DNA of 64,000 nt, taken from assembly GCF_003018235.1 (NCBI RefSeq), contig NZ_CP027437.1; one strand, 5' to 3'. A program made the translations under genes and the position numbers. The notes under the pieces were generated by a model. The model was not told where the DNA came from, did no database searches, and saw only the letters and a list, made by a program, of their open reading frames with translations. The stretch comes from Escherichia coli. Its GTDB lineage: Bacteria; Pseudomonadota; Gammaproteobacteria; Enterobacterales; Enterobacteriaceae. This document shows positions 1,622 through 47,445 of the stretch, piece by piece; position 1 is the first letter of the stretch; every line of letters begins with the position of its first letter.

Positions 1622-2236
1622 TTTTATATTATGCCAACAACGGAGCGTAGCAGTGTTTCTATATATAGTACGCCTACCTTAATTTTCAAATAATCATGAT
1701 TAATGAGCAGGTCATCAGTGCAAGCAATGACCTGCTCATCTTGTTGAAATTAGAGGAAATCTTGAAGCCATGATATGGCTTAAAATAACGTTTGATTATT
1801 TTACCTGCTGTTTGTCCCTGGTTTAAAGTCGGTTGTCTGATTTGATTACGCGCAACTGACGCTTACGTATTGAAGTAACGAGCACGAAGACACATATTTA
1901 TCAGTGCCTGTATACGTCAAGAGCAGGAGATTTATGTGCTGGTTCTCAAATGCACGCTGGCTATTGTGGCTGTAATGGCAATTTATTGTCTTGTTATTGT
2001 TCTTATGGATCACCTTACTGATTGATTTCATATTGGCGAGGTAACGGTAGTTAAGTAGAATGGCTGCGGGTGCTTGAGGCTATCTGCCTCGGGCATGAAC
2101 ACCAACGGCAGATAGAGAAAAGCCCCAGTTAACATTACGCGTCCTGCAAGACGCTTAACATTAATCTGAGGCCAATTTCATGCTAGACACATGTAGGTTA
2201 GCCTCTTACGTGCCGAAAGGCAAGGAGAAGCAGGCT

Positions 2237-2392
2237 ATGAAGCAGCAAAAGGCGATGTTAATCGCCCTGATCGTCATTTGTTTAACCGTCATAGTGACGG
2301 CACTGGTAACGAGGAAAGACCTCTGCGAGGTACGAATCCGAACCGGCCAGACGGAGGTCGCTGTCTTCACAGCTTACGAACCTGAGGAGTAA
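2237..2392 (+). CDS. hokD: Hok-family type I toxin HokD (RelF), 51 aa
   Basis: Translation MKQQKAMLIALIVICLTVIVTALVTRKDLCEVRIRTGQTEVAVFTAYEPEE; SD aaggag 6 nt upstream of the ATG. Confidence 0.9.
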   Translation: MKQQKAMLIALIVICLTVIVTALVTRKDLCEVRIRTGQTEVAVFTAYEPEE

Positions 2393-2462
2393 GAGACCCG
2401 GCGAGGGAGAAATCCCTCGCCACCTCTGATGTGGCAGGCATCCTCAACGCACCCGCACTTAA

Positions 2463-2490
2463 CCCGCTTCGGCGGGTTTTTGTTTTTATT
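2463..2490 (+). terminator. Rho-independent terminator after hokD
   Basis: Hairpin cccgc-ttcg-gcggg followed by tttttgttttt. Confidence 0.7.
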
Positions 2491-2608
2491 TTCAACGCGT
2501 TTGAAGTTCTGGACGGTGCCGGAATAGAATCAAAAATACTTAAGTAGCGCGCAGGGATAAGAGGGATGGTCCCTTAAAGGGGAGAGCTAATTATCCGGAA
2601 GGATTCTG

Positions 2609-2860
2609 ATGATGAACATCGAAGAACTGCGTAAAATTTTTTGTGAAGATGGCCTCTATGCTGTGTGCGTTGAAAATGGAAATCTTGTTAGTCATTACCG
2701 CATTATGTGTTTGCGAAAGAATGGGGCTGCGTTAATTAATTTTGTGGATGGTCGAGTGACAGACGGATTTATCTTGCGCGAAGGTGAGTTTGTCACTTCA
2801 TTACAGGCACTGAAAGAGATCGGAATAAAAGCAGGCTTTTCAGCTTTTGCAGAAGAATAA
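2609..2860 (+). CDS. rem: Qin prophage small protein Rem
   Basis: 83-aa ORF MMNIEELRKIF... in the conserved hokD-rem-ydfU-Q order. Confidence 0.8.
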   Translation: MMNIEELRKIFCEDGLYAVCVENGNLVSHYRIMCLRKNGAALINFVDGRVTDGFILREGEFVTSLQALKEIGIKAGFSAFAEE

Positions 2861-2926
2861 ACTCATCTACAATCTTGCGCGGGGCTGAACTCCCGCTGAG
2901 TAACACCGTGCCACCGGAGAAAACCG

Positions 2927-3205
2927 ATGGCACGCAACGTAAAATATTACAATTCTGATAATTCGCCCGTTCTTGCCTGCACGCACGAGCGGTATTCTCA
3001 CGCATTCAAGTCTGAATGGTTCCAGCACCCTCCATGCACTGAAGAGCAGGCTGAATGGATAATTCAGTGTTACCGCAGGCGCGGATACGAGGTTAAGAAA
3101 GCCCTTAGTCTCGACTACCGTCACTGGATAATCTCAGTCAGATTGCCTTACTCCGAACGCCCACCGCGTCCGTCCCGTACATTCCAGCAACGCATCTGGA
3201 GGTAA
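2927..3205 (+). CDS. Hypothetical Cys/His-rich protein (92 aa) directly upstream of ydfU
   Basis: ORF ends 1 nt before the ydfU GTG start; no recognisable family. Confidence 0.4.
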   Translation: MARNVKYYNSDNSPVLACTHERYSHAFKSEWFQHPPCTEEQAEWIIQCYRRRGYEVKKALSLDYRHWIISVRLPYSERPPRPSRTFQQRIWR

Positions 3206-3206
3206 C

Positions 3207-4256
3207 GTGCGGGTATTACTTCGACCTGTTCTGGTACCGGAACTCGGGCTGGTGGTCGTTAAGCCGGGCCGTGAATCCATGCCGGTATTCCACAATACCC
3301 GGGTACTGGTGGAGCCGGAACCGAAAAGCATGCGTAATCTGCCGTCCGGGGTCGTTCCTGCCGTTCGCCAGCCGCTGGTGGAAGACAAAACATTGCTGCC
3401 GTTTTTCAGTAACGCACGGGTAATTCGTGCTGCTGGTGGTGCTGGTGCATTGTCTGACTGGCTGTTGCGCCATATTAAATCCTGCCAGTGGCCACACGGC
3501 GATTATCATCACAGTGAAACCGTTATTCACCGTTATGGTACCGGCGCAATGGTGTTGTGCTGGCACTGCGACAACCAGCTGCGTGACCAGACATCCGAAT
3601 CACTCGAGCAACTTGCTCATCAAAACCTGTCAGCATGGATGATTGACGTCATCGGTCACGCAATAAGCGGTACGCAGGAGCGTGAATTATCTCTGGCTGA
3701 ATTATCCTGGTGGGCGGTCCGCAATCAGGTGGCGGACGCGCTACCGGAAGCGGTATTACGTCGCTCGCTGGGATTACCAGCGGAAAAAAACTGCTCGGTG
3801 TACCGCGAAAGCGACATCGTACCGGGAGAGCAGACCGCCACCAGCATATTGAAACAGCGCACAAAAAATCTTGCACCGTTGCCTCACGCCCACCAGCAAC
3901 AAAACCCATCACAGGAAAAGACGGTGGTAAGCATCACCGTTGATCCAGAGTCTCCGGAATCTTTCATGAAGCTGCCTAAACGTCACCGTTGGGTTAAGGA
4001 GAAATACACACGCTGGGTTAAGACACAGCCGTGTGCTTGCTGCGGTATGCCAGCCGACGATCCGCATCATCTGATTGGTCACGGGCAGGGCGGAATGGGA
4101 ACCAAAGCACATGATCTCTTTGTGTTGCCTTTGTGCAGAAAGCATCACGACGAGCTGCATGCGAATACCGTGGCATTTGAAGAGAAGTATGGCTCCCAGC
4201 TGGAGCTGATATTTCGTTTTATCGATCGTGCGCTGGCAATAGGCGTACTGGCGTAA
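3207..4256 (+). CDS. ydfU: DUF968 protein YdfU with C-terminal HNH-like Cys/His cluster
   Basis: 349-aa ORF with GTG start and SD ggagg; C-terminus CACCGMPADDPHHLIGHGQGG...CRKHHDELH. Confidence 0.85.
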   Translation: MRVLLRPVLVPELGLVVVKPGRESMPVFHNTRVLVEPEPKSMRNLPSGVVPAVRQPLVEDKTLLPFFSNARVIRAAGGAGALSDWLLRHIKSCQWPHGDYHHSETVIHRYGTGAMVLCWHCDNQLRDQTSESLEQLAHQNLSAWMIDVIGHAISGTQERELSLAELSWWAVRNQVADALPEAVLRRSLGLPAEKNCSVYRESDIVPGEQTATSILKQRTKNLAPLPHAHQQQNPSQEKTVVSITVDPESPESFMKLPKRHRWVKEKYTRWVKTQPCACCGMPADDPHHLIGHGQGGMGTKAHDLFVLPLCRKHHDELHANTVAFEEKYGSQLELIFRFIDRALAIGVLA

Positions 4257-4269
4257 GTGGAGAACGAGC

Positions 4270-5022
4270 ATGAACCTTGAAGCTTTACCAAAATATTACT
4301 CCCCAAAATCTCCAAAATTGAGTGATGACGCACCGGCGACAGGCTCGGGTGGTTTAACAATAACAGATGTGATGGCTGCGCAGGGGATGGTGCAGTCGAA
4401 AGCTCCGCTTGGTTTTGCCTTATTCCTGGCAAAAGTTGGTGTTGAGGATCCTCAGTTTGCGATTGAAGGTCTGCTCAATTACGCGATGGCAATGGATAAT
4501 CCGACATTGAACAAATTGAGTGAAGAAATCCGGTTACAGATCATCCCTTACCTTGTGAATTTTGCCTTTGCTGATTATTCCAGGTCTGCGGCAAGTAAGG
4601 CTCGCTGTGAGTATTGTGCTGGTACTGGATTTCATAATGTATTGCGCGAAGTGGTGAAACACTCCAGAAGTGGGGAATCTGTTATCAAGGAAGAGTGGGT
4701 GAAGGAACTATGTCAGCATTGCCATGGTAAGGGAGAAGTCAGCACAGCGTGCAGAGGGTGTAAGGGGAAAGGTATTGTCCTGGATGAAAAAAGAACCCGG
4801 CTTCATAGCACGCCTGTTTATAAGGTTTGTGGGCGTTGCAATGGAAACCGGTTTAGTCGTTTACCAACGACACTGGCGCGGTGTCATGTCCAGAAGCTGG
4901 TACCAGACCTGACGGATTATCAGTGGTACAAAGGATATGCAGATGTCATTGATAAACTGGTTACAAAGTGCTGGCAGGAAGAAGCATATGCTGAGGTGCA
5001 ATTAAGAAAAGTGACGAGATAA
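4270..5022 (+). CDS. quuQ: Late-gene antiterminator Q
   Basis: 250-aa ORF with Cys-rich zinc-finger region (CEYCAGTG...CQHCHGKGE...CRGCKGKG...CGRCNGN); sits upstream of the lysis genes. Confidence 0.85.
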   Translation: MNLEALPKYYSPKSPKLSDDAPATGSGGLTITDVMAAQGMVQSKAPLGFALFLAKVGVEDPQFAIEGLLNYAMAMDNPTLNKLSEEIRLQIIPYLVNFAFADYSRSAASKARCEYCAGTGFHNVLREVVKHSRSGESVIKEEWVKELCQHCHGKGEVSTACRGCKGKGIVLDEKRTRLHSTPVYKVCGRCNGNRFSRLPTTLARCHVQKLVPDLTDYQWYKGYADVIDKLVTKCWQEEAYAEVQLRKVTR

Positions 5023-5192
5023 ATGATTTTCACCGAACGATGGCGACATAACGATTGTATTTTCTAAGGAAACGTGCAAAGAGTTTTCCAATGATGAGCC
5101 TTATATGCATACCTGTGGAAAATATCAATAAGCCGCGCAGAGTGGTTTTTTTGTGGACATAAACTTTGTGCAGAACGGTAACCATTATGGTT

Positions 5193-5229
5193 GCCGTGAA
5201 TGCAGTTTTTTTACATTGCTGGCTTTTTT
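5193..5229 (+). terminator. tR'-like intrinsic terminator about 190 nt downstream of Q
   Basis: Imperfect hairpin gccgtgaatg...cattgctggc followed by tttttt; matches the lambda PR'/tR' layout. Confidence 0.4.
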
Positions 5230-6099
5230 AGATTTGTGTTAGTTATTGATATTAACAAGAAGGGGAAAAGACATGCTAAAACGGCAGGATATGAAGGAAA
5301 CGGTTATGCGTGAATGTTCCAGTGTGATTAACCATATCATCTGGAGAAGCCATCCTGATGCAGGGAAGAGGTAACAGTAACGCGCATCAATCAGGCTGCA
5401 AATAAATGGCTTACGCCGGAAATCTGGCTATCGATGTATTACCGGTTTGTTACCCATGAAGAAAATTAAGGTGATAACGAAACTGATTTTATAGGTGTCT
5501 TGTCAGAGTGTTGCGATGAAACTTGTGTTGGCAGTGCAGGGAAAACAGTAGGATGAAAATTATAAATTGCTTTAAATGAGCTTGATTTTCCTCATGTTAT
5601 GAGATATTTGTCTTATATTGCTGGTTAATTATGAAAATTTTTGTAAATCTACAGCAATAAAATCCATATTAATTAAAGCACTAGATGCGTTTCTGATTTG
5701 TGCATGAAACATACATATCATAATGATTAATTGCATCTATAATTACAGATACAGCATTGTGCTATTAAAAAACTGGAGTCCCCATGAATACATTATATGT
5801 AAGTGATTCAAATGAAAAATCTCATGACAGGAATAAAAACAATGAGGATAGTAAGGGTAAGGATAATAAAAAAGACAACCGGAAAGAGTAAATAATCTTT
5901 CCTGCATGAAAATACTAGGGTGGAATATGTCAGAACATCCAGATTTTGATGACCGTAAGCCTGATGATGAGCCCGTTGAGCGTCCTGATGAGGGGCAACC
6001 ATTGAACCCTTTTTCACCGGATGATAAAAGAGATCCTATTATTTAGATATAGCAGAATATAGCCGTTTAAAGTAGGTTGTGTTTTGTTGCTATCCTTAA

Positions 6100-6126
6100 A
6101 CCACCTCCACAGGAGGTGGTTTTTTA
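6100..6126 (+). terminator. Strong Rho-independent terminator
   Basis: Perfect 9-bp stem accacctcc / ggaggtggt with 3-nt loop, then ttttt. Confidence 0.8.
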
Positions 6127-6182
6127 CTAATGGAACATTAATTGGCAGATGTGATTGTGTACGACTTATGGGAGGCTTAAGA

Positions 6183-6368
6183 TTATTTTCTGCCAATAAT
6201 AAAACCAAGCGTTAACCCTATGCTTAGAGCAACCACCACGCTAGTCAGTGGATAATTTCTAAATTTATCTTTAACGTTTTCTTTGCCTCCCTGCAAAGCA
6301 TCGTCAGCACATGATGCATATTTTTTGACAGTATTAACTATTTCGTTTTCAGATTGATTTGAAGTCAT
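6183..6368 (-). CDS. Small tail-anchored membrane protein, DUF883 (YqjD/ElaB/YgaM)-like; 61 aa from the first ATG (ORF open to 6467 with a TTG)
   Basis: C-terminal NYPLTSVVVALSIGLTLGFIIGRK resembles the DUF883 membrane anchor; weak SD agga. Confidence 0.35.
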   Translation of the reverse strand: MTSNQSENEIVNTVKKYASCADDALQGGKENVKDKFRNYPLTSVVVALSIGLTLGFIIGRK

Positions 6369-6823
6369 GTTTGAAGTCCTGATGTTAAGTGGTTTTTTAA
6401 TTATAGCAGATATGCTTTCAATGATAGGGCGGAGAGTTGTTATTGAGGTGATACTATGACCACTCAATCAATATTACATAAAATGACGTTTACTCCTGTT
6501 TGGCACAGTAGCAGAATTTTGCTTCTGCTACTGAAGTCGCTTTAGCACTAGAATATGCAGATGGATAAAGCAGTTCAGCGTATGTACTGCGTCATGCATA
6601 TCGGTCTTGCAGATATGACGAGAAGGGGAGACAAGGTGTGTGTAATGTAGAAGTCTTTAAAGTGCTGTCTGGGATAACTCTATGCTGAAGTGCAATTGAT
6701 AAAAGTAACACGATAAAGGTTTTTCAATGAAGATGGTAACGTGATGCTTGCATTTTTCAAAAAATATGGATAAAATTTTTTCAAAGATGGGCTTTGTATA
6801 CCCGACGTTAAGAAAAAGTAGAA

Positions 6824-6852
6824 AACCCGCTGATGAGCGGGTTTTGTGCTTT
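6824..6852. terminator. Bidirectional intrinsic terminator (3' end of the cspF transcript on the - strand)
   Basis: Hairpin cccgct-gatg-agcggg flanked by T-rich tracts on both strands. Confidence 0.55.
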
Positions 6853-7137
6853 AAATGGGGCAATGGTAATGTTGAATCTCATCCCGGGACTCATGTCTGT
6901 TAACTTATTATTTAGCTGGTGACTTGGTTATTTGCCTGATGTTTAAAATGTTTTCTTCCAGTACAATGTCCCTAAACACAATGAGTCTGCTTATTATATT
7001 ATTAGCAGAGCTATTACGGCCAAAGTACAGCATAAGCTTTTAAAGCCAATCAACCAGTCATCAAGACAGACGGGGTTATTCATAAAAACTCTCCATGTGT
7101 GATCCGATGGGGCCTGAAATTAAAGCTTTAATATAGC

Positions 7138-7350
7138 TCATGAAAGGTAAACATTGGCAGCTGAAGGGCCACGCAGACCATTTATCCGGCAAAATTCCAC
7201 GCGTAATCCGGTGGTAATTTCTTCTGCATCGCGGAGATTGAGCGCTGAAACATGAAGCTGGACATCGATACGACCATCGGATGGGGTGATAAGACCCTTG
7301 CCGCTTTTGCCGTCAAAGGTTTTGACAATTCCTGTCATTTTACGGGACAA
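7138..7350 (-). CDS. cspF: Cold-shock-like protein CspF
   Basis: 70-aa translation [70 protein letters not shown]. Confidence 0.9.
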
Positions 7351-7650
7351 AAAAATTCCTTAATACTGATAACTTGGCGCACTATACACACGTTCCTGAA
7401 GAAAGCTATAGTTTTTTGATGGGGTTGAAGATGGCTGGATGTCTAAAATAAACATTGCTTCATATGTTCAACTATGCGTTAATGATTGCGTCGGTTTGAA
7501 GAACAGACGATATACGAAGTAGTTTACTAAAGCAGTTCTCATTTCAGGTGTTATTCACTTATTCCTTCTTTGAGTCTCTCCAATTAAGTACGAAGTCGTT
7601 TCTGTTATGCAAACCATTTATGCCGAAAGGCTCAAGTTAAGGAATGTAGA

Positions 7651-7866
7651 ATGTCAAATAAAATGACTGGTTTAGTAAAATGGTTTAACGCTGATAAAGG
7701 TTTCGGCTTTATTTCTCCTGTTGATGGTAGTAAAGATGTGTTTGTGCATTTTTCTGCGATTCAGAATGATAATTATCGAACCTTATTTGAAGGTCAAAAG
7801 GTTACCTTCTCTATAGAGAGTGGTGCTAAAGGTCCTGCAGCAGTAAATGTCATCATTACTGATTAA
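7651..7866 (+). CDS. cspB: Cold-shock-like protein CspB
   Basis: 71-aa translation [26 protein letters not shown]... with the CspA-family RNP motifs. Confidence 0.9.
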
Positions 7867-8147
7867 AATTCATCGCTCGTCTGTATACGATAACGAAGAA
7901 GGCTGATGCCTGAGTAGAGATACGGACAGAGTAGTGAATATTGGATCTCTTTAATAAAAAGTAAGGAGATCCAATACATGAAACAATGGCCAGCATATTT
8001 GGCAAAATCTTAATCAGGAAAAGTATGCTAACCATTGTGGTGAAGTGCAGGTTTGCTGCATGAATAGTTTCACAGCAGAAGCTAACTGCTGGCATCGCAA
8101 AACAAAGTGCGTAAGTGGATGACTCCCACAAAAAGCACCACAATCTC

Positions 8148-8172
8148 AAACCCGCTCAGGCGGGTTTTTTAT
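8148..8172 (+). terminator. Rho-independent terminator about 290 nt downstream of cspB
   Basis: Hairpin cccgc-tcag-gcggg followed by ttttttatt. Confidence 0.7.
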
Positions 8173-8229
8173 TATCTGCTTTAAATATATTATTAAAATA
8201 TAAAAAATACTTGTTACTAATAAAATCAA

Positions 8230-8400
8230 TCAGGCTACAGCTTTAAGATTTGTCTGGAATACTTTGTTGCAATGAGGGCAGATCAAAAGGGCACCTTTTT
8301 GTACTCTTGAAAAACTGTGTTCTGACTCTTGGGTGCAGTTTGGGCAGGAACATTTAACGAGATAATTACGGCGTGATTTTGAGTCTTTACGTTCTGACAT
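8230..8400 (-). CDS. ynfU: Small zinc-ribbon protein (56 aa), YnfU-like
   Basis: MSERKDSKSRRNYLVKCSCPNCTQ...CPHCNKVF with CxCPxC...CPxC motif; assignment to ynfU is from memory of the K-12 small-protein set. Confidence 0.5.
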   Translation of the reverse strand: MSERKDSKSRRNYLVKCSCPNCTQESEHSFSRVQKGALLICPHCNKVFQTNLKAVA

Positions 8401-8619
8401 AGGCTTTTCCTGTATAAATGGCCGTATACAGTACACTAAATATGAAAACATTTCTCGTATTATTATTTTATATATGACTTTCTTTCAAAATAATTACCCA
8501 CATTTTTAATGTGTATGTTTTTTTAGCGCCGTTGAGAACAACGTGTGCTGTCAAAACTACCCCGTAGACTCCGATCTTTTCAAACATATTGCACCATCCG
8601 TGTACATCGGGGTGAGGAT

Positions 8620-8835
8620 ATGAAATCAATGGATAAGTTAACAACAGGTGTTGCCTATGGCACATCGGCGGGTAATGCTGGTTTCTGGGCATTGCAGTTA
8701 CTCGATAAAGTAACTCCGTCACAGTGGGCTGCAATCGGTGTGCTGGGTAGCCTGGTTTTTGGCCTGCTGACGTATCTGACAAATCTTTATTTCAAGATTA
8801 AAGAAGACAGGCGTAAGGCTGCGAGAGGAGAGTAA
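8620..8835 (+). CDS. essQ: Class II holin (phage 21 S-type pinholin) with dual-start motif MKSM
   Basis: 71 aa with two transmembrane segments; Met1 and Met4 give antiholin/holin starts; followed by a SAR endolysin. Confidence 0.85.
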
Positions 8836-8839
8836 TCCA

Positions 8840-9147
8840 ATGACTCAAGACTATGAACTGGTTGTGAAAGGAGTCCGTAATTTTGAGAATAAAGTTACGG
8901 TAACTGTAGCCTTACAGGACAAAGAACGCTTTGACGGTGAAATTTTTGACCTGGATGTCGCCATGGACCGTGTTGAAGGAGCTGCGCTGGAGTTTTATGA
9001 GGCAGCAGCCAGAAGGAGCGTCCGGCAAGTCTTCCTGGAAGTAGCAGAAAAATTGTCAGAAAAAGTTGAGTCTTATCTGCAGCATCAGTACTCCTTTAAG
9101 ATTGAAAATCCTGCCAATAAGCACGAGCGTCCTCATCATAAATATCT

Positions 9148-9151
<4 letters not shown>
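8840..9151 (+). CDS. ydfR: DUF1327 protein YdfR
   Basis: 103-aa ORF between holin and endolysin, as in K-12 Qin. Confidence 0.8.
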
Positions 9152-10175
<1,024 letters not shown>

Positions 10176-10535
10176 GGTAATATTAAATCGGAACATTTAC
10201 ATCGCGGAATGTAAAATTTAAATAAAAAGGACTCTTCCATGAGCCAAAATTCCTGAAATCTTAAGGGTAAGAAAAGGTCTTAATCAGAATGACACGTTTT
10301 ATTAATAAATAAAGCTATTCTTTCATTGCTGTGTTTTTCTTTACAAAAGTAATCCTTGCTATGGGTGGTTAATCATGCGTTAATGGTGTTCTGGTTTGTT
10401 ACAAATTTATCTGAAGCAGTCATTGTTATAATTTTATTATTTGTACCTCTTGGGATTTCCTTGTTGGTTTTTCTCTCTGATATTTTTTTTCGGACCATTC
10501 TGCCCAAGGGCTAATTTCTTCAAAAGGTAATAATT

Positions 10536-10748
10536 ATGTCTAACAAAATGACTGGTTTAGTGAAATGGTTTAACCCTGAAAAAGGTTTTGGTTTCATCAC
10601 GCCGAAAGATGGCAGCAAAGATGTGTTTGTCCATTTCTCAGCAATTCAGAGCAACGATTTCAAAACATTAACTGAGAATCAGGAAGTTGAATTTGGTATT
10701 GAGAACGGACCTAAAGGTCCTGCCGCTGTTCATGTAGTGGCGCTTTGA
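10536..10748 (+). CDS. cspI: Cold-shock-like protein CspI
   Basis: 70-aa translation [26 protein letters not shown]... Confidence 0.9.
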
Positions 10749-10952
10749 GGTAGACAATATTACAAACCATATTCACTTTAGATGCCCGTGTTGTCATGGT
10801 TCCCAGTATAGAACATCATCTTTTGATGTTTCTGACATGAATCCTTTCGGGGCAAAATGTATCTTTTGTAAATCAATGATGATTACATTTGATAATATTT
10901 CACAATACTTAAATGCCAGCCGTCTGTCGTTGGATTTAAAAAAGTGAAAATG

Positions 10953-10976
10953 AAGGCTCCTTCGGGAGCTTTTTTG
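10953..10976 (+). terminator. Rho-independent terminator
   Basis: Hairpin gctcc-ttcg-ggagc followed by tttttt. Confidence 0.65.
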
Positions 10977-11019
10977 CTTGGTGTCTATTCGATGGATACT
11001 CACATACTACGGTAACATC

Positions 11020-11250
11020 ATGAAAAAAATCATAGTTTTTTTTAACTCTGAACCAGCAGTGGTAGTGCCAGCGATGACTGGAGTTAACACCATCATGCGT
11101 GAATATCCAAATGGCGAAAAAACACACCTTACTGTAATGGCCGCAGGGTTTCCATCTCTGACCGGAGATCATAAAGTCATTTATGTAGCCGCGGATCGAC
11201 ATGTTACTTCAGAAGAAATTCTGGAAGCAGCAATAAGGCTCTTGAGTTGA
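11020..11250 (+). CDS. Hypothetical protein (76 aa)
   Basis: ORF MKKIIVFFNSEPAVVV... on the late strand between cspI and gnsB; no clear SD. Confidence 0.3.
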   Translation: MKKIIVFFNSEPAVVVPAMTGVNTIMREYPNGEKTHLTVMAAGFPSLTGDHKVIYVAADRHVTSEEILEAAIRLLS

Positions 11251-11421
11251 TTTGATGCTATTGTATTGATAATTCAGGAAAATTCTCTTTGTCTGTTTGT
11301 GTAAAATTTAGACTATCGTATGTTGATTATTGCGATGTTTCATCTTATCTTTTACACGTTTGCACCATATAATCGACTTACTGTGTAACTGGAAAGTCAT
11401 AACAGGCTAAAAGAGGAAATG

Positions 11422-11595
11422 ATGAATATTGAAGACTTAAAAACAAAAACAGAAGCAGATATTTCTGAATATATAACAAAAAAAATTATTGAACTTAAGA
11501 AAAAGACCGGGAAAGAAGTTACCAGTATTCAGTTTACCGCACGGGAAAAAATGACGGGTCTTGAAAGCTATGATGTCAAGATTAATTTAATCTGA
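11422..11595 (+). CDS. gnsB: GnsA/GnsB-family small protein (57 aa)
   Basis: MNIEDLKTKTEADISEYITKKIIELKKKTGKEVTSIQFTAREKMTGLESYDVKINLI; SD aagagga; missing from the ORF track because under 60 aa. Confidence 0.8.
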   Translation: MNIEDLKTKTEADISEYITKKIIELKKKTGKEVTSIQFTAREKMTGLESYDVKINLI

Positions 11596-11623
11596 TGTAT
11601 TCAATAATAAAATTTATCCATAA

Positions 11624-11647
11624 ACCCCGTTTTTACGGGGTTTTGTT
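11624..11647 (+). terminator. Rho-independent terminator after gnsB
   Basis: Hairpin ccccgt-tttt-acgggg followed by tttt. Confidence 0.75.
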
Positions 11648-11746
11648 ATATTTGAATGGTTCCGAATATCTAAATCACAATTGTTGATGGTTTTTATTAA
11701 ACCAATGCAGTCCGGCTCAGGAGTGAGAGAAGCCGGACGTTATGGT

Positions 11747-12157
11747 TTAGCGTGGTAAGATCTGTGTAGTTTTCTGGATGCTTTCAGTAAATAGTAATGA
11801 GTTATCAAAGGCATAGTAATATCTTTGGTGTTCCTGGATATTTGTAACCCATCGGAAAACTCCTGCTTTAGCAAGATTTTCCCTGTATTGTTGAAATGTG
11901 ATTTCTTTTGATTTCAACTTATTATAGGAGGTCTCTATAAGATGTTTGTTTCTGGAGAATTTAACATTTACAACCTTTTTGAGTCCTTTTACTAACACTA
12001 TGTTGTCGTTTTCTAACACAATGTGAATATTATCTGTGGCTAAATAGTAAATATAAAGTGAGACATTGTGACGTTTTAGCTCAGAATAAAATAATTCACA
12101 GTTTAAATCTTTACGCACTTGATCGAATATTTCTTTAAAAATGGCAGCCTGAGCCAT
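11747..12157 (-). CDS. ydfO: DUF1398 protein YdfO (136 aa)
   Basis: Start taken at the second Met, which has SD gaagg; length matches K-12 YdfO. Confidence 0.75.
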
Positions 12158-12457
12158 TGGTAAACCTTCCATGTGATACGATGGCGCGTAGTTTGCATTA
12201 TCGTGTTTATTGTTTCAATCTGGTCTGACCTCTTTGTGTTTTGTTGATGATTTATGTCAAATATTAAGCCTGTTTTTAATGAATAGTGTTGATTGCGTAA
12301 CAAAGTTGAGCCTTGCTGGCATCCAGGAGGGATATGCAACCGACAGATGTATGTAAGGTCGATGTACTCAAACTTTCATACTTTTCCTCTTTTATGCAGA
12401 AAGATTTGAAGTAATATTTTAACCGCTAGATGACGAGCAAACGCATGGAGCGACAAA

Positions 12458-35677: not shown

Positions 35678-36252
35678 TGGCATTCAGAATGAGTGAACAA
35701 GCACGGACCATAAAAATTTATAACCTGCTGGCCGGAACTAATGAATTTATTGGTGAAGGTGACGCATATATTCCTCCTCATACAGGTCTGCCTGCAAACA
35801 GTACCGATATTGCACCGCCAGATATTCCGGCTGGCTTTGTGGCTGTTTTCAACAGTGATGAGGCATCGTGGCATCTCGTTGAAGACCATCGGGGAAAAAC
35901 GGTCTATGACGTGGCTTCCGGCGACGCGTTATTTATTTCTGAACTCGGCTCATTACCGGAAAATGTCACCTGGTTATCCCCGGAAGGGGAGTTTCAGAAG
36001 TGGAACGGTACAGCCTGGGTGAAGGATACGGAAGCAGAAAAACTGTTCCGGATCCGGGAGGCGGAAGAAACAAAAAACAGCCTGATGCAGGTAGCCAGTG
36101 AGCATATAGCGCCGCTTCAGGATGCTGTGGATCTGGAGATCGCAACGGAGGAAGAAACCTTGTTGCTGGAAGCCTGGAAAAAGTATCGGGTGTTGCTGAA
36201 CCGTGTTGATACATCAACTGCACCGGATATTGAATGGCCAGCCCTACCGTAG
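35677..36252 (+). CDS. tfa: Tail fibre assembly protein Tfa
   Basis: 191 aa; start overlaps stf stop (ATAATGG). Confidence 0.85.
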
Positions 36253-47142: not shown

Positions 47143-47176
47143 CATTCATTGAGAAAACTGATGCTACTGTGTCAAC

Positions 47177-47274
47177 GATCCGTTATCAGTGCAGGAAAAT
47201 GCCTGTTAGCGTAAAAGCAAAACACAAATCTATCCATGCAAGCATTCACCGCCGGTTTACTGGCGGTTTTTTTT
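47177..47274 (+). ncRNA. mgrR: Putative PhoP-activated Hfq-binding sRNA MgrR (5' end approximate)
   Basis: PhoP box upstream; intrinsic terminator accgcc-ggtttact-ggcggt followed by tttttttt at 47247-47274; between dgcZ and mgtS. Confidence 0.45.
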
Positions 47275-47349
47275 CGCCGTCATAAAAATCAGGCCCCTTG
47301 TACACAGTTGTAACAAGGGGCCGGTTAGGTGAGGGATTATCTCCGTTCA

Positions 47350-47445
47350 TTAGTCATCCCATTTGTGGCTGAAATACGCGGCCAGAAAACCAGAAAATAA
47401 AATTATTCCCAGTACGGCCATAAAAACATTCATATTACCCAGCAT
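47350..47445 (-). CDS. mgtS: Small membrane protein MgtS (YneM), 31 aa
   Basis: MLGNMNVFMAVLGIILFSGFLAAYFSHKWDD; SD ggagg 7 nt upstream; hairpin terminator at 47281-47322. Confidence 0.8.
   Translation of the reverse strand: MLGNMNVFMAVLGIILFSGFLAAYFSHKWDD

Follow-up and report, generated by a model that had tools for sequence, protein, structure and literature searches.

The window, by which we mean the whole 64,000-nucleotide stretch of Escherichia coli DNA analyzed here, carries a Qin-like prophage with a wide gap between its Q antiterminator gene and its lysis genes. Q (positions 4270-5022, + strand, 250 aa) ends with its stop codon at 5022, and the holin gene essQ/essD (8620-8835, + strand, RefSeq annotation), the first late lysis gene, starts at 8620, leaving an interval of 3,597 bp (5023-8619). 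Late lysis and structural genes then occupy the + strand between 8.6 kb and about 36 kb, and the prophage seems to retain a complete set of the structural ones. Q belongs to the lambda-Q family, defined by PF03589 (PMC9388147), and has an additional DnaJ-type zinc finger: Pfam PF03589 is matched twice (1e-27 and 8e-19), DnaJ_CXXCXGXG is matched once, and the protein falls in PHROG 127. Its amino acid sequence is 97% identical to SfV Q and 92% identical to K-12 YdfT. We found no functional study of the Qin Q protein (quuQ/ydfT) in the literature searched.

An earlier sequence-only reading of this DNA had described the interval as a 3.6-kb cargo segment standing in place of stx, in which Q-dependent read-through of terminators controls a set of small genes. 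The interval is real, and the positional analogy to the lambdoid slot between Q and the holin is right. As that reading also stated, the interval is free of tRNA genes; indeed, ARAGORN finds none in the whole 64-kb window. The interval lacks stx genes, and we found no toxin-like ORF in it using the ORF list, NCBIfam and PHROGs.

The distal 1.96 kb (6659-8619) is the quuQ-essQ interval of the K-12 prophage Qin. Window positions 6659-9000 are 98.6% identical to K-12, and the order and strands of ynfS (-), cspF (-), cspB (+) and ynfU (-), the late promoter and the terminator are all shared. Among the surveyed loci, 33 have this 1.9-kb K-12-type form. The two prophages differ in that the K-12 interval is about 1.9 kb long with a single promoter module, whereas the window has 3.6 kb with tandem modules and 1.64 kb extra between Q and the shared promoter. 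Additionally, the window prophage apparently has its full late structural genes, whereas the K-12 prophage is a remnant.

The genes in this distal segment are familiar ones. The 29-aa product of ynfS (6994-7083, - strand) is identical to K-12 YnfS, a protein detected by epitope tagging (PMC6001520). cspF (7138-7350, - strand) is annotated in both RefSeq and K-12, and cspB (CDS 7651-7866, + strand) is preceded by its own long cold-shock 5' leader, so that the feature as a whole spans 7490-7866. The leader belongs to the Rfam family RF01766 (cspA thermoregulator), whose match at 7490-7913 covers both the 5' UTR and the CDS and scores 158.9 bits (gathering score 78); Rfam searches at the gathering threshold, and also at E <= 1, otherwise returned chance-level matches. 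ynfU (8230-8400, - strand) encodes a 56-aa protein with two CPxC zinc knuckles that matches NCBIfam NF038384 at 79.8 bits (cut-off 36), and a promoter scan places a promoter-like TTGAAA-18-AATAAT at 8488-8459, outside its CDS. YnfU has been detected as a protein in K-12 (bioRxiv 10.1101/511675), and expression of both YnfS and YnfU is documented in uninduced K-12 (PMC6001520; bioRxiv 10.1101/511675). The cspF, cspB and zinc-ribbon genes of the sequence-only reading are thus present, the last being ynfU. One of its "unannotated short ORFs" is the known YnfS. K-12 work has thus already covered most of the content, namely cspB, cspF, YnfS and YnfU; RefSeq annotates just one further CDS in the interval, encoding a 61-aa protein. 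That reading gave no strands; cspF, ynfU, ynfS and the 61-aa CDS all lie on the minus strand. It also missed the K-12 identity of the distal segment and the module duplication described below.

A module made of a Q 3' end, a late promoter and a terminator occurs twice in the window, at 4966-5155 and 6659-6851, and a single K-12 segment matches both places by blastn. The distal module opens with the 3' remnant of a second Q gene (6659-6716, + strand, …YAEVQLIKVTR*), recognized from this double match and the module alignment. Behind the remnant, 1.7 kb downstream of the Q-adjacent promoter copy A, lies promoter copy B (6748-6788, + strand), which is canonical by comparison with K-12 and lambda PR'. 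It consists of a -35 TTGCAT (6748-6753), a 17-nt spacer and a -10 TAAAAT (6771-6776), with a predicted start at 6783; all three elements are identical to those of K-12 and 63 other loci. A sigma-pause element, AAAGAT (6783-6788), stands opposite the AACGAT of lambda PR' in the alignment. All Q proteins at least 92% identical to the window's Q are paired with the spacer TTTTCAAAAAATATGGA, and Q proteins at 65-69% identity are paired with other spacers. By analogy with lambda, and from this co-variation in a few divergent loci, the spacer of copy B is a putative Q-binding element. We rejected one further locus as another example of DNA inserted between Q and the promoter, because its Q gene is simply broken by IS elements.

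Copy A (5055-5095, + strand) is probably decayed, as judged from alignments to copy B and to related phages. Its -35, TTGTAT (5055-5060), begins 33 bp past the Q stop codon, as in every single-copy locus, and its pause-element homologue, AATGAT (5090-5095), aligns with the lambda AACGAT. The spacer is altered, and the -10 position (5078-5083) reads AAAGAG, the sole variant without T1 and T6 among 95 loci. In our promoter survey, single-copy promoters of this family always have TAAAAT, TAAGAT, TAGGAT or TATAAT as the -10, and AAAGAG was confined to tandem loci, where it sits in the copy next to Q. Copy A and the 1.64-kb insert always co-occur. Because two critical -10 bases and half of the terminator stem are lost, copy A is most likely a dead duplicate. 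It may have residual activity, since a TG one base 5' of the -10 position, the -35-like hexamer and the pause-element homologue are retained. Copy A is also invariant among loci whose flanks diverge by about 5%, which could mean constraint or merely recent spread of the block.

The interval is rich in intrinsic terminators. We scored + strand hairpins followed by a U-tract with dG <= -10 and used 60 dinucleotide shuffles as a control. Four strong sites were observed (5169-5204, 6099-6121, 6824-6843 and 8148-8167) against 0.67 +/- 0.75 in the shuffles, none of which reached four. The first is a hairpin in a conserved leader (dG -19.3, T-run 5206-5212), and the second (6099-6126, dG -15.9 then T6) lies 3' of two + strand mini-ORFs. 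The third is the tR' of copy B (6824-6851, dG -13.0 then TTTTGTGCTTT), whose position matches annotated SfV and Ayreon terminators, and the fourth follows cspB (8148-8173, dG -11.3 then T6). The copy A terminator (5130-5155, + strand) is a fifth, weaker site that aligns with the same annotated terminators; its weakened hairpin (5130-5148) has a dG of -7.3 compared to -13 for copy B and is followed by T7. The sequence-only reading's count of at least four strong terminators agrees with these data. It placed those at 6100-6126 and 8148-8172 correctly, but its 5193-5229 is just the 3' half and U-tract of the 5169-5204 hairpin.

The proximal 1.64 kb (5023-6658) is a rare recombination mosaic. We found it in 39 of 5,426 complete E. 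coli genomes, two isolated phages and five IMG/VR contigs, with a core about 99% identical wherever it occurs. Its parts are the extra, Q-proximal copy of the Q 3' end/promoter/terminator module, a conserved leader, an AT-rich orphan core, and gene scraps of orf-64-like, methylase, rha and Q origin. The leader (5136-5301, + strand) is a lambdoid late leader with ~76% identity to the post-tR' segment of related phages, among them SfV, mEp460, Ayreon and Stx1a/Stx2c phages, in 182 phage records altogether. A 33-aa ORF (5274-5374, + strand) proved by alignment and blastn to be a fusion scar. It starts with the first ~12 codons of an SfV orf47/lambda orf-64-like gene, joined to other sequence that includes a 53-bp methylase-gene fragment (5306-5358, 83% to SfV orf48 by blastn). 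Three related loci have a 32-bp deletion just 3' of this ORF. Toward the distal end of the insert lies a frameshifted pseudogene scrap, the 5' fragment of a rha-type phage regulator (6443-6650, + strand), whose DNA matches the beginning of PhiR26_1 Rha at 79% identity.

Between these scraps lies the ~1-kb orphan core (5400-6440, 27-43% GC), whose DNA matches are confined to the same 39 genomes, two phages and five contigs. On its + strand the ORF list offers two candidates, both hydrophilic and both recorded as hypothetical proteins in the two phages. One is a 35-aa ORF (5784-5891) with a GGAG Shine-Dalgarno (SD) sequence and a possible promoter TATAAT at 5738-5743; it has no family match in NCBIfam or PHROGs. 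The other is an acidic, proline-rich 39-aa ORF (5927-6046), and the ATG upstream of it at 5906 is a SNP specific to the window. Searches of NCBIfam, PHROGs and 5.8 billion proteins with the 33-, 35- and 39-aa ORFs gave near-identical E. coli copies only, with no diverged homologues of the two candidates. The insert ORFs differ at 1-3 sites per ORF among related copies, too little variation for dN/dS. The core's minus strand carries the convergent 61-aa gene (6183-6368, RefSeq CDS WP_000203370.1), with an extended -10 TGcTATAAT predicted at 6408-6400, outside the CDS, and an SD AGGA at 6380-6377. PADLOC gave no defence-system match for the orphan ORFs or for the 61-aa family.

This layout suggests where Q acts. 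The promoter at which Q would join RNA polymerase is the intact distal copy (6748-6788), which has kept a canonical -10, the spacer seen with all closely related Qs and a lambda-like sigma-dependent pause element. Since copy A is degenerate and the canonical copy lies 1.7 kb downstream, the terminators at 5169 and 6099, two of the three named by the sequence-only reading, are probably upstream of the real Q-loading site. Together with the one at 5130, they would not be Q targets and would instead shield the real late promoter from Q-gene read-through and from the insert's small transcription unit. Without Q, transcription from copy B would end at 6824-6851, giving a leader RNA of about 65-69 nt, for which the lambda 6S RNA and StxS are parallels (PMC7547250; PMC9388147). 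With Q, polymerase would pass this terminator and the cspB terminator at 8148, cross ynfS, cspF and ynfU antisense, and proceed into the holin gene and roughly 27 kb of late genes. To judge from the predicted hairpins, Q-modified polymerase would have to read through the slot's intrinsic terminators to reach the lysis and structural genes. Both isolated phages have this same layout, so it is consistent with a functional late switch.

Of the five credible cargo genes, only cspB has the orientation of the late transcript; ynfS, cspF, ynfU and the 61-aa gene are antisense to it. Because of these four, and because cspB has its own cold-shock leader, a Q-controlled cargo operon is supported only in part: the slot position and the terminators stand, and the control of the cargo set is undercut further by the degenerate copy A. 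The cargo genes would instead be expressed in the lysogen from their own signals, namely the cspB leader, the TTGAAA-18-AATAAT of ynfU and the extended -10 of the 61-aa gene. Late transcription would oppose, not induce, the antisense ones.

Phage morons are autonomous promoter-gene-terminator inserts in the late operons of lambdoid phages such as HK97 and HK022, and the cargo genes here look like autonomous morons within a late-operon leader. They are AT-rich compared to their flanks, sit between essential modules, and have their own terminators and predicted promoter-like sites, with lysogen expression documented for K-12 YnfS and YnfU only. The window differs in stacking several morons together with decayed fragments and a duplicated regulatory module. 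The Q-stx-S slot of Stx phages has the same position on the phage map, and the ~76% identity of the leader extends to it, but the window has neither stx nor tRNAs; its cargo is mostly antisense and would therefore not be co-induced with lysis as stx is. Compared to the lambda late cassette (Q, PR', pause element, tR'), the PF03589-family Q is shared, promoter, pause element and terminator follow in the same order as at PR', and intrinsic terminators (6824-6843 and 8148-8167) lie between copy B and the holin. In contrast, the window's Q is 41% identical to lambda Q with a 47-residue extra zinc-finger insertion, the module is doubled with a degenerate proximal copy, and the probable promoter lies 1.8 kb from the holin with antisense genes in between.

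We conclude that the interval is a known and largely ordinary cargo slot, found in a Qin-like E. coli prophage and lengthened here by a rare 1.6-kb patchwork. It is likely the late-operon leader of an apparently complete lambdoid prophage, a leader in which self-contained cargo and recombination debris have landed. K-12 catalogues already list the cold-shock genes, YnfS and YnfU, and the slot has no sign of a toxin or a novel regulatory principle. What it does indicate is that in a lambdoid prophage the late promoter in actual use can lie apart from the Q gene. A Q-adjacent look-alike may be a promoter fossil, and this alters the terminators and genes that get assigned to Q control.

The alternatives differ mainly in the role they give to copy A. 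If the entire 3.6 kb were one Q-controlled operon starting at copy A, with read-through of five successive terminators setting small-gene expression, the canonical position of this copy, 33 bp after the Q stop codon, its retained -35-like hexamer, TG and pause-element homologue, and the existence of five + strand terminators would all find a place. We nonetheless regard this, the model of the sequence-only reading, as very unlikely, given that the -10 position of copy A reads AAAGAG, without T1 and T6, the one such variant in 95 loci, that its spacer is unlike the one paired with Qs of 92-97% identity, that the opposite strand holds four of the five credible cargo genes, and that cspB is under its own regulated leader. 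The same degenerate -10 and altered spacer count against the idea that both copies are active and that Q loads at each, for instance weakly at the proximal copy, which would also drive the + strand mini-ORFs, and strongly at the distal copy for lysis. Two viable phages, and contigs with about 5% diverged flanks, retain both modules without change, as two working copies would predict. Such retention is explained equally well if the block, its core about 99% identical wherever it occurs, has spread recently, and we consider two active copies highly improbable.

The remaining alternatives concern the insert and turn on the 61-aa gene. That the 1.64 kb is wholly non-functional debris, with no ORF expressed or selected, including the 61-aa one, is unlikely in our judgment. 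At least four gene scraps, ORFan content without family or defence-system matches, and variation insufficient for a dN/dS test are what such debris would contain. The 61-aa ORF does not fit this description: 14 further viral contigs have intact homologues (34-53% identity) of conserved length, which lie in the late regions of other lambdoid phages and preserve a tail-anchor ending G-R-R/K, and the gene has a perfect extended -10 and an SD. The protein matches PHROG 11629 (E 5e-47), and in all 14 loci with visible orientation the family member is intact and runs antisense to Q, holin or lysozyme. The family's C-terminal 29-30 residues align over their whole length with the membrane anchor of YqjD, a tail-anchored stress protein of the DUF883 group YqjD/ElaB/YgaM (hhalign against YqjD 72-101: probability 86-88%, E 3-5e-6); Pfam DUF883_C is matched below threshold (E 0.2 to 7e-3). 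Unlike those proteins, the window's protein is just 61 aa long and phage-borne, and we detected no N-terminal DUF883 helical domain by Pfam or NCBIfam in its N-terminal 35 residues. The family has no significant relative among solved structures. These comparisons document a recurrent phage small-protein family of 61-82 aa, tail-anchored and always antisense to the late operon, that is cheaply testable. The fullest version of this idea is a family, not described before, of miniature membrane proteins whose tail anchor resembles that of DUF883, carried by lambdoid phages in late-operon slots (Q-to-holin or Rz-to-terminase), always antisense, and acting as a lysogen stress/membrane or exclusion factor that convergent late transcription switches off. 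We advance it as a tentative proposal and hold it to be distinctly unlikely; if it were true, the tandem, half-decayed late promoter would be a footprint of cargo swapping at PR'-tR'. In one phage, a member of the family adjoins a universal-stress-protein gene.

The Qin-like lambdoid prophage in the window separates Q (4270-5022, + strand, 250 aa) from the holin gene that begins its lysis genes (8620-8835, + strand) by an AT-rich interval of 3,597 bp, whose GC content is 27-43% compared with ~50% in the flanks. On the 3' side of the holin lie ydfR, lysozyme, Rz and cspI, and then ~25 kb of + strand structural genes. MG1655 Qin aligned with window positions 2223-5106 and 6659-12235 by blastn, with 98.6% identity across 6659-9000, and ynfS, cspF, cspB, ynfU and essQ are common to both on the same strands. 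Judged by these alignments, most of the interval is the K-12 Qin interval and most of its content is already catalogued. The YnfS protein has been seen via chromosomal tagging (PMC6001520), and YnfU was discovered via initiation-complex ribosome profiling and termed a zinc-knuckle protein of Qin (bioRxiv 10.1101/511675). The sequence-only reading had placed cspF, cspB and a zinc-ribbon small protein here, and all three are present: cspF (7138-7350, - strand), cspB (7651-7866, + strand) with a full cspA-type thermoregulatory leader (7490-7913; Rfam RF01766, 158.9 bits), and the zinc-ribbon protein, which is YnfU (8230-8400, - strand; NCBIfam NF038384, 79.8 bits against a cut-off of 36). It had also seen no tRNA-like sequence in the interval, and we found no tRNA in the entire 64-kb window. 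In the 280 nt that follow the cspB stop codon, up to the 8148 terminator, sits a tiny ORF, MKQWPAYLAKS (7963-8013, + strand), whose strong AAGGAG Shine-Dalgarno lies inside a 9-bp stem (7941-7975). Annotation of these genes varies: RefSeq PGAP names ynfS 'hypothetical protein' in strain CH4811 (7972-8061), and the GenBank record of phage HannyBb (PP925841, 4949-7710) annotates ~25 tiny + strand ORFs and omits cspF, cspB and ynfU, an annotation artefact.

The remaining 1.64 kb (5023-6658) is additional to the K-12 Qin interval. Because a single 141-bp K-12 segment is matched twice by blastn, the window holds two copies of a module made of a Q 3' end, a late promoter and a terminator: copy A (4966-5155), joined to the intact Q, and copy B (6659-6851). 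Of 5,426 complete E. coli genomes, just 39 carry copy A and the sequence between the copies, always together and at >99% identity. PhiR63_1 and HannyBb, both isolated temperate phages, have them too, as do five IMG/VR contigs; the 1.9-kb K-12 form was found in 33 loci in a survey of loci with the same promoter type. Its sequence marks this extra segment as a rare mosaic insert. A conserved leader (5136-5301) has ~76% identity to the post-tR' segment of SfV, mEp460, Ayreon and many Stx1a/Stx2c phages. A 33-aa ORF from 5274 preserves just the opening dozen codons of the SfV orf47/lambda orf-64-like gene before entering 53 bp left over from the SfV methylase gene. Further along are a frameshifted rha 5' fragment (6443-6650) and the final part of another Q gene (6659-6716), leaving 5400-6440 as the only stretch of the insert without recognisable ancestry. 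Three related contigs lack 32 bp of the window (5394-5425), a deletion consistent with an unconstrained segment just 3' of the 33-aa scar ORF. SNPs peculiar to the window are at 5114, 5764, 6393, 6472 and 6785, the last within the pause element of copy B.

The AT-rich core of the insert appears to hold two very small transcription units that converge. Its + strand has highly charged ORFs of 35 and 39 aa, each with a Shine-Dalgarno, ahead of the 6099 terminator; these candidates have no relatives other than near-identical E. coli copies. A 46-aa version of the latter rests on a window-specific SNP, G at 5908 creating an ATG where seven of seven related loci have A. On the - strand, a 61-aa ORF (WP_000203370.1; PHROG 11629, E 5e-47) sits behind an AGGA Shine-Dalgarno and a perfect extended -10 element (TGcTATAAT, 6408-6400). 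A word-indexed search with this protein returned E. coli copies only; exhaustive HMMER searching and a viral-contig scan recovered relatives of 64 and 82 aa (34-53% identity), all intact and with a C-terminal hydrophobic stretch followed by G-R-R/K. The gene is antisense to Q, holin or lysozyme in all 14 loci showing any of these, in either the Q-to-lysis-gene or the Rz-to-terminase gap. The C-terminal 30 residues of the 61-aa protein align end to end with the YqjD membrane anchor (hhalign 86-88%, E 3-5e-6). Since its Pfam DUF883_C match falls below threshold and it lacks the N-terminal DUF883 domain, the protein is best termed DUF883-like rather than a DUF883 family member. No defence-system model matched it. 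In one phage, the family gene adjoins a universal-stress-protein gene, and stress-protein paralogues (Csp, Usp, DUF883-like) seem to turn up repeatedly in the Q-to-lysis slot. One such slot, in the lambdoid viral contig L106, holds a universal-stress-protein-family gene (2305-2790) beside a 64-aa homologue of the 61-aa protein (1783-1977), both antisense to Q.

Scanning the + strand for a hairpin plus U-tract identified terminators at 5130-5148 (dG -7.3), 5169-5204 (-19.3), 6099-6121 (-15.9), 6824-6843 (-13.0) and 8148-8167 (-11.3). At least four strong terminators had been proposed, and four of these five reach dG <= -10, against 0.67 +/- 0.75 expected from 60 dinucleotide-preserving shuffles, none of which reached four. 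A second, built-in scan of both strands agreed in direction (12 sites versus 5.6 +/- 2.9). Two of the three terminator positions proposed earlier are exact; the third, 5193-5229, starts midway through the 5169-5204 hairpin and covers just its 3' half plus the U-tract.

Which of these terminators Q could act on depends on which late promoter works. Q matches PF03589 twice and carries a DnaJ-type zinc finger, placing it in the lambda-Q family, whose cassette comprises Q, PR', a pause element and a terminator (PMC9388147). Its amino-acid identity is 97% with SfV Q, 96% with Ayreon Q, 92% with K-12 YdfT and 41% with lambda Q. The copy B promoter, TTGCAT-N17-TAAAAT, is identical to K-12 in -35, spacer and -10, and is colinear with lambda PR', its AAAGAT aligning opposite the pause-inducing AACGAT of lambda. 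Across 95 loci, gathered by a degenerate-pattern scan of IMG/VR and from other searches, every single-copy promoter has a -10 of TAAAAT, TAAGAT, TAGGAT or TATAAT. The AAAGAG -10, which has lost both critical T positions, is confined to the Q-proximal copy of tandem loci, and a canonical copy follows it wherever the contig is long enough. In lambda, Q binds within the 17-nt promoter spacer. This spacer co-varies with Q, as every Q at least 92% identical pairs with TTTTCAAAAAATATGGA and those at 65-69% pair with other spacers; the copy A and copy B spacers match at only ~8 of 17 positions. Copy A also has the weaker terminator stem (dG -7.3 versus -13). Because of the canonical copy B, the AAAGAG element, the spacer mismatch and the weak stem, we infer on sequence grounds that Q loads at copy B and that copy A is a decaying duplicate. 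If so, transcription from the functional late promoter would begin beyond the terminators at 5130, 5169 and 6099, and Q-modified polymerase loaded at copy B would have to pass only those at 6824 and 8148 before the holin. Lambda 6S RNA and StxS (PMC7547250) offer a precedent for what the late promoter would be expected to make in the lysogen, a short leader RNA that ends at a terminator; the predicted leader has no match to any Rfam family.

The tR' hairpin AACCCGCCACTGAGCGGGTTTTTT is present twice in phage Ayreon (1802-1845 and 2481-2519) and likewise in an Stx2c phage, bracketing an inserted pair of ORFs (37 and 141 aa), and PR'/tR' duplications look like a trace that cargo insertion leaves repeatedly. 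An IMG/VR contig (L082, 2600-5850) has a Q gene of the same type broken by IS21-family (istA/istB) and IS3-family elements.

The sequence-only reading was right to liken this slot to that of stx, and Q-dependent read-through would have to occur in the interval. Two viable phages carry the identical arrangement. The reading's further proposal of a Q-controlled cargo set is only partly supported: of five credible cargo genes, four run antisense, and the remaining one, cspB, regulates itself; moreover, the working promoter probably lies beyond two of the three terminators that the reading named, and most of the content is catalogued. We conclude that the interval looks like an ordinary moron slot of a Qin-type prophage, for the most part already known, here in a rare and enlarged mosaic version. 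Its modest interest lies in a probable fossil promoter duplicate, which puts 1.7 kb between Q and its probable site of action, and in a small, recurrent, always-antisense family of tail-anchored proteins. Outside the interval, the Rfam matches above gathering score were the sok antitoxin RNA adjoining hokD (2068-2242), a second cspA thermoregulator belonging to cspI (10390-10775), IS009 (36020-36218) and the Hfq-binding RNA STnc560 (47143-47356).
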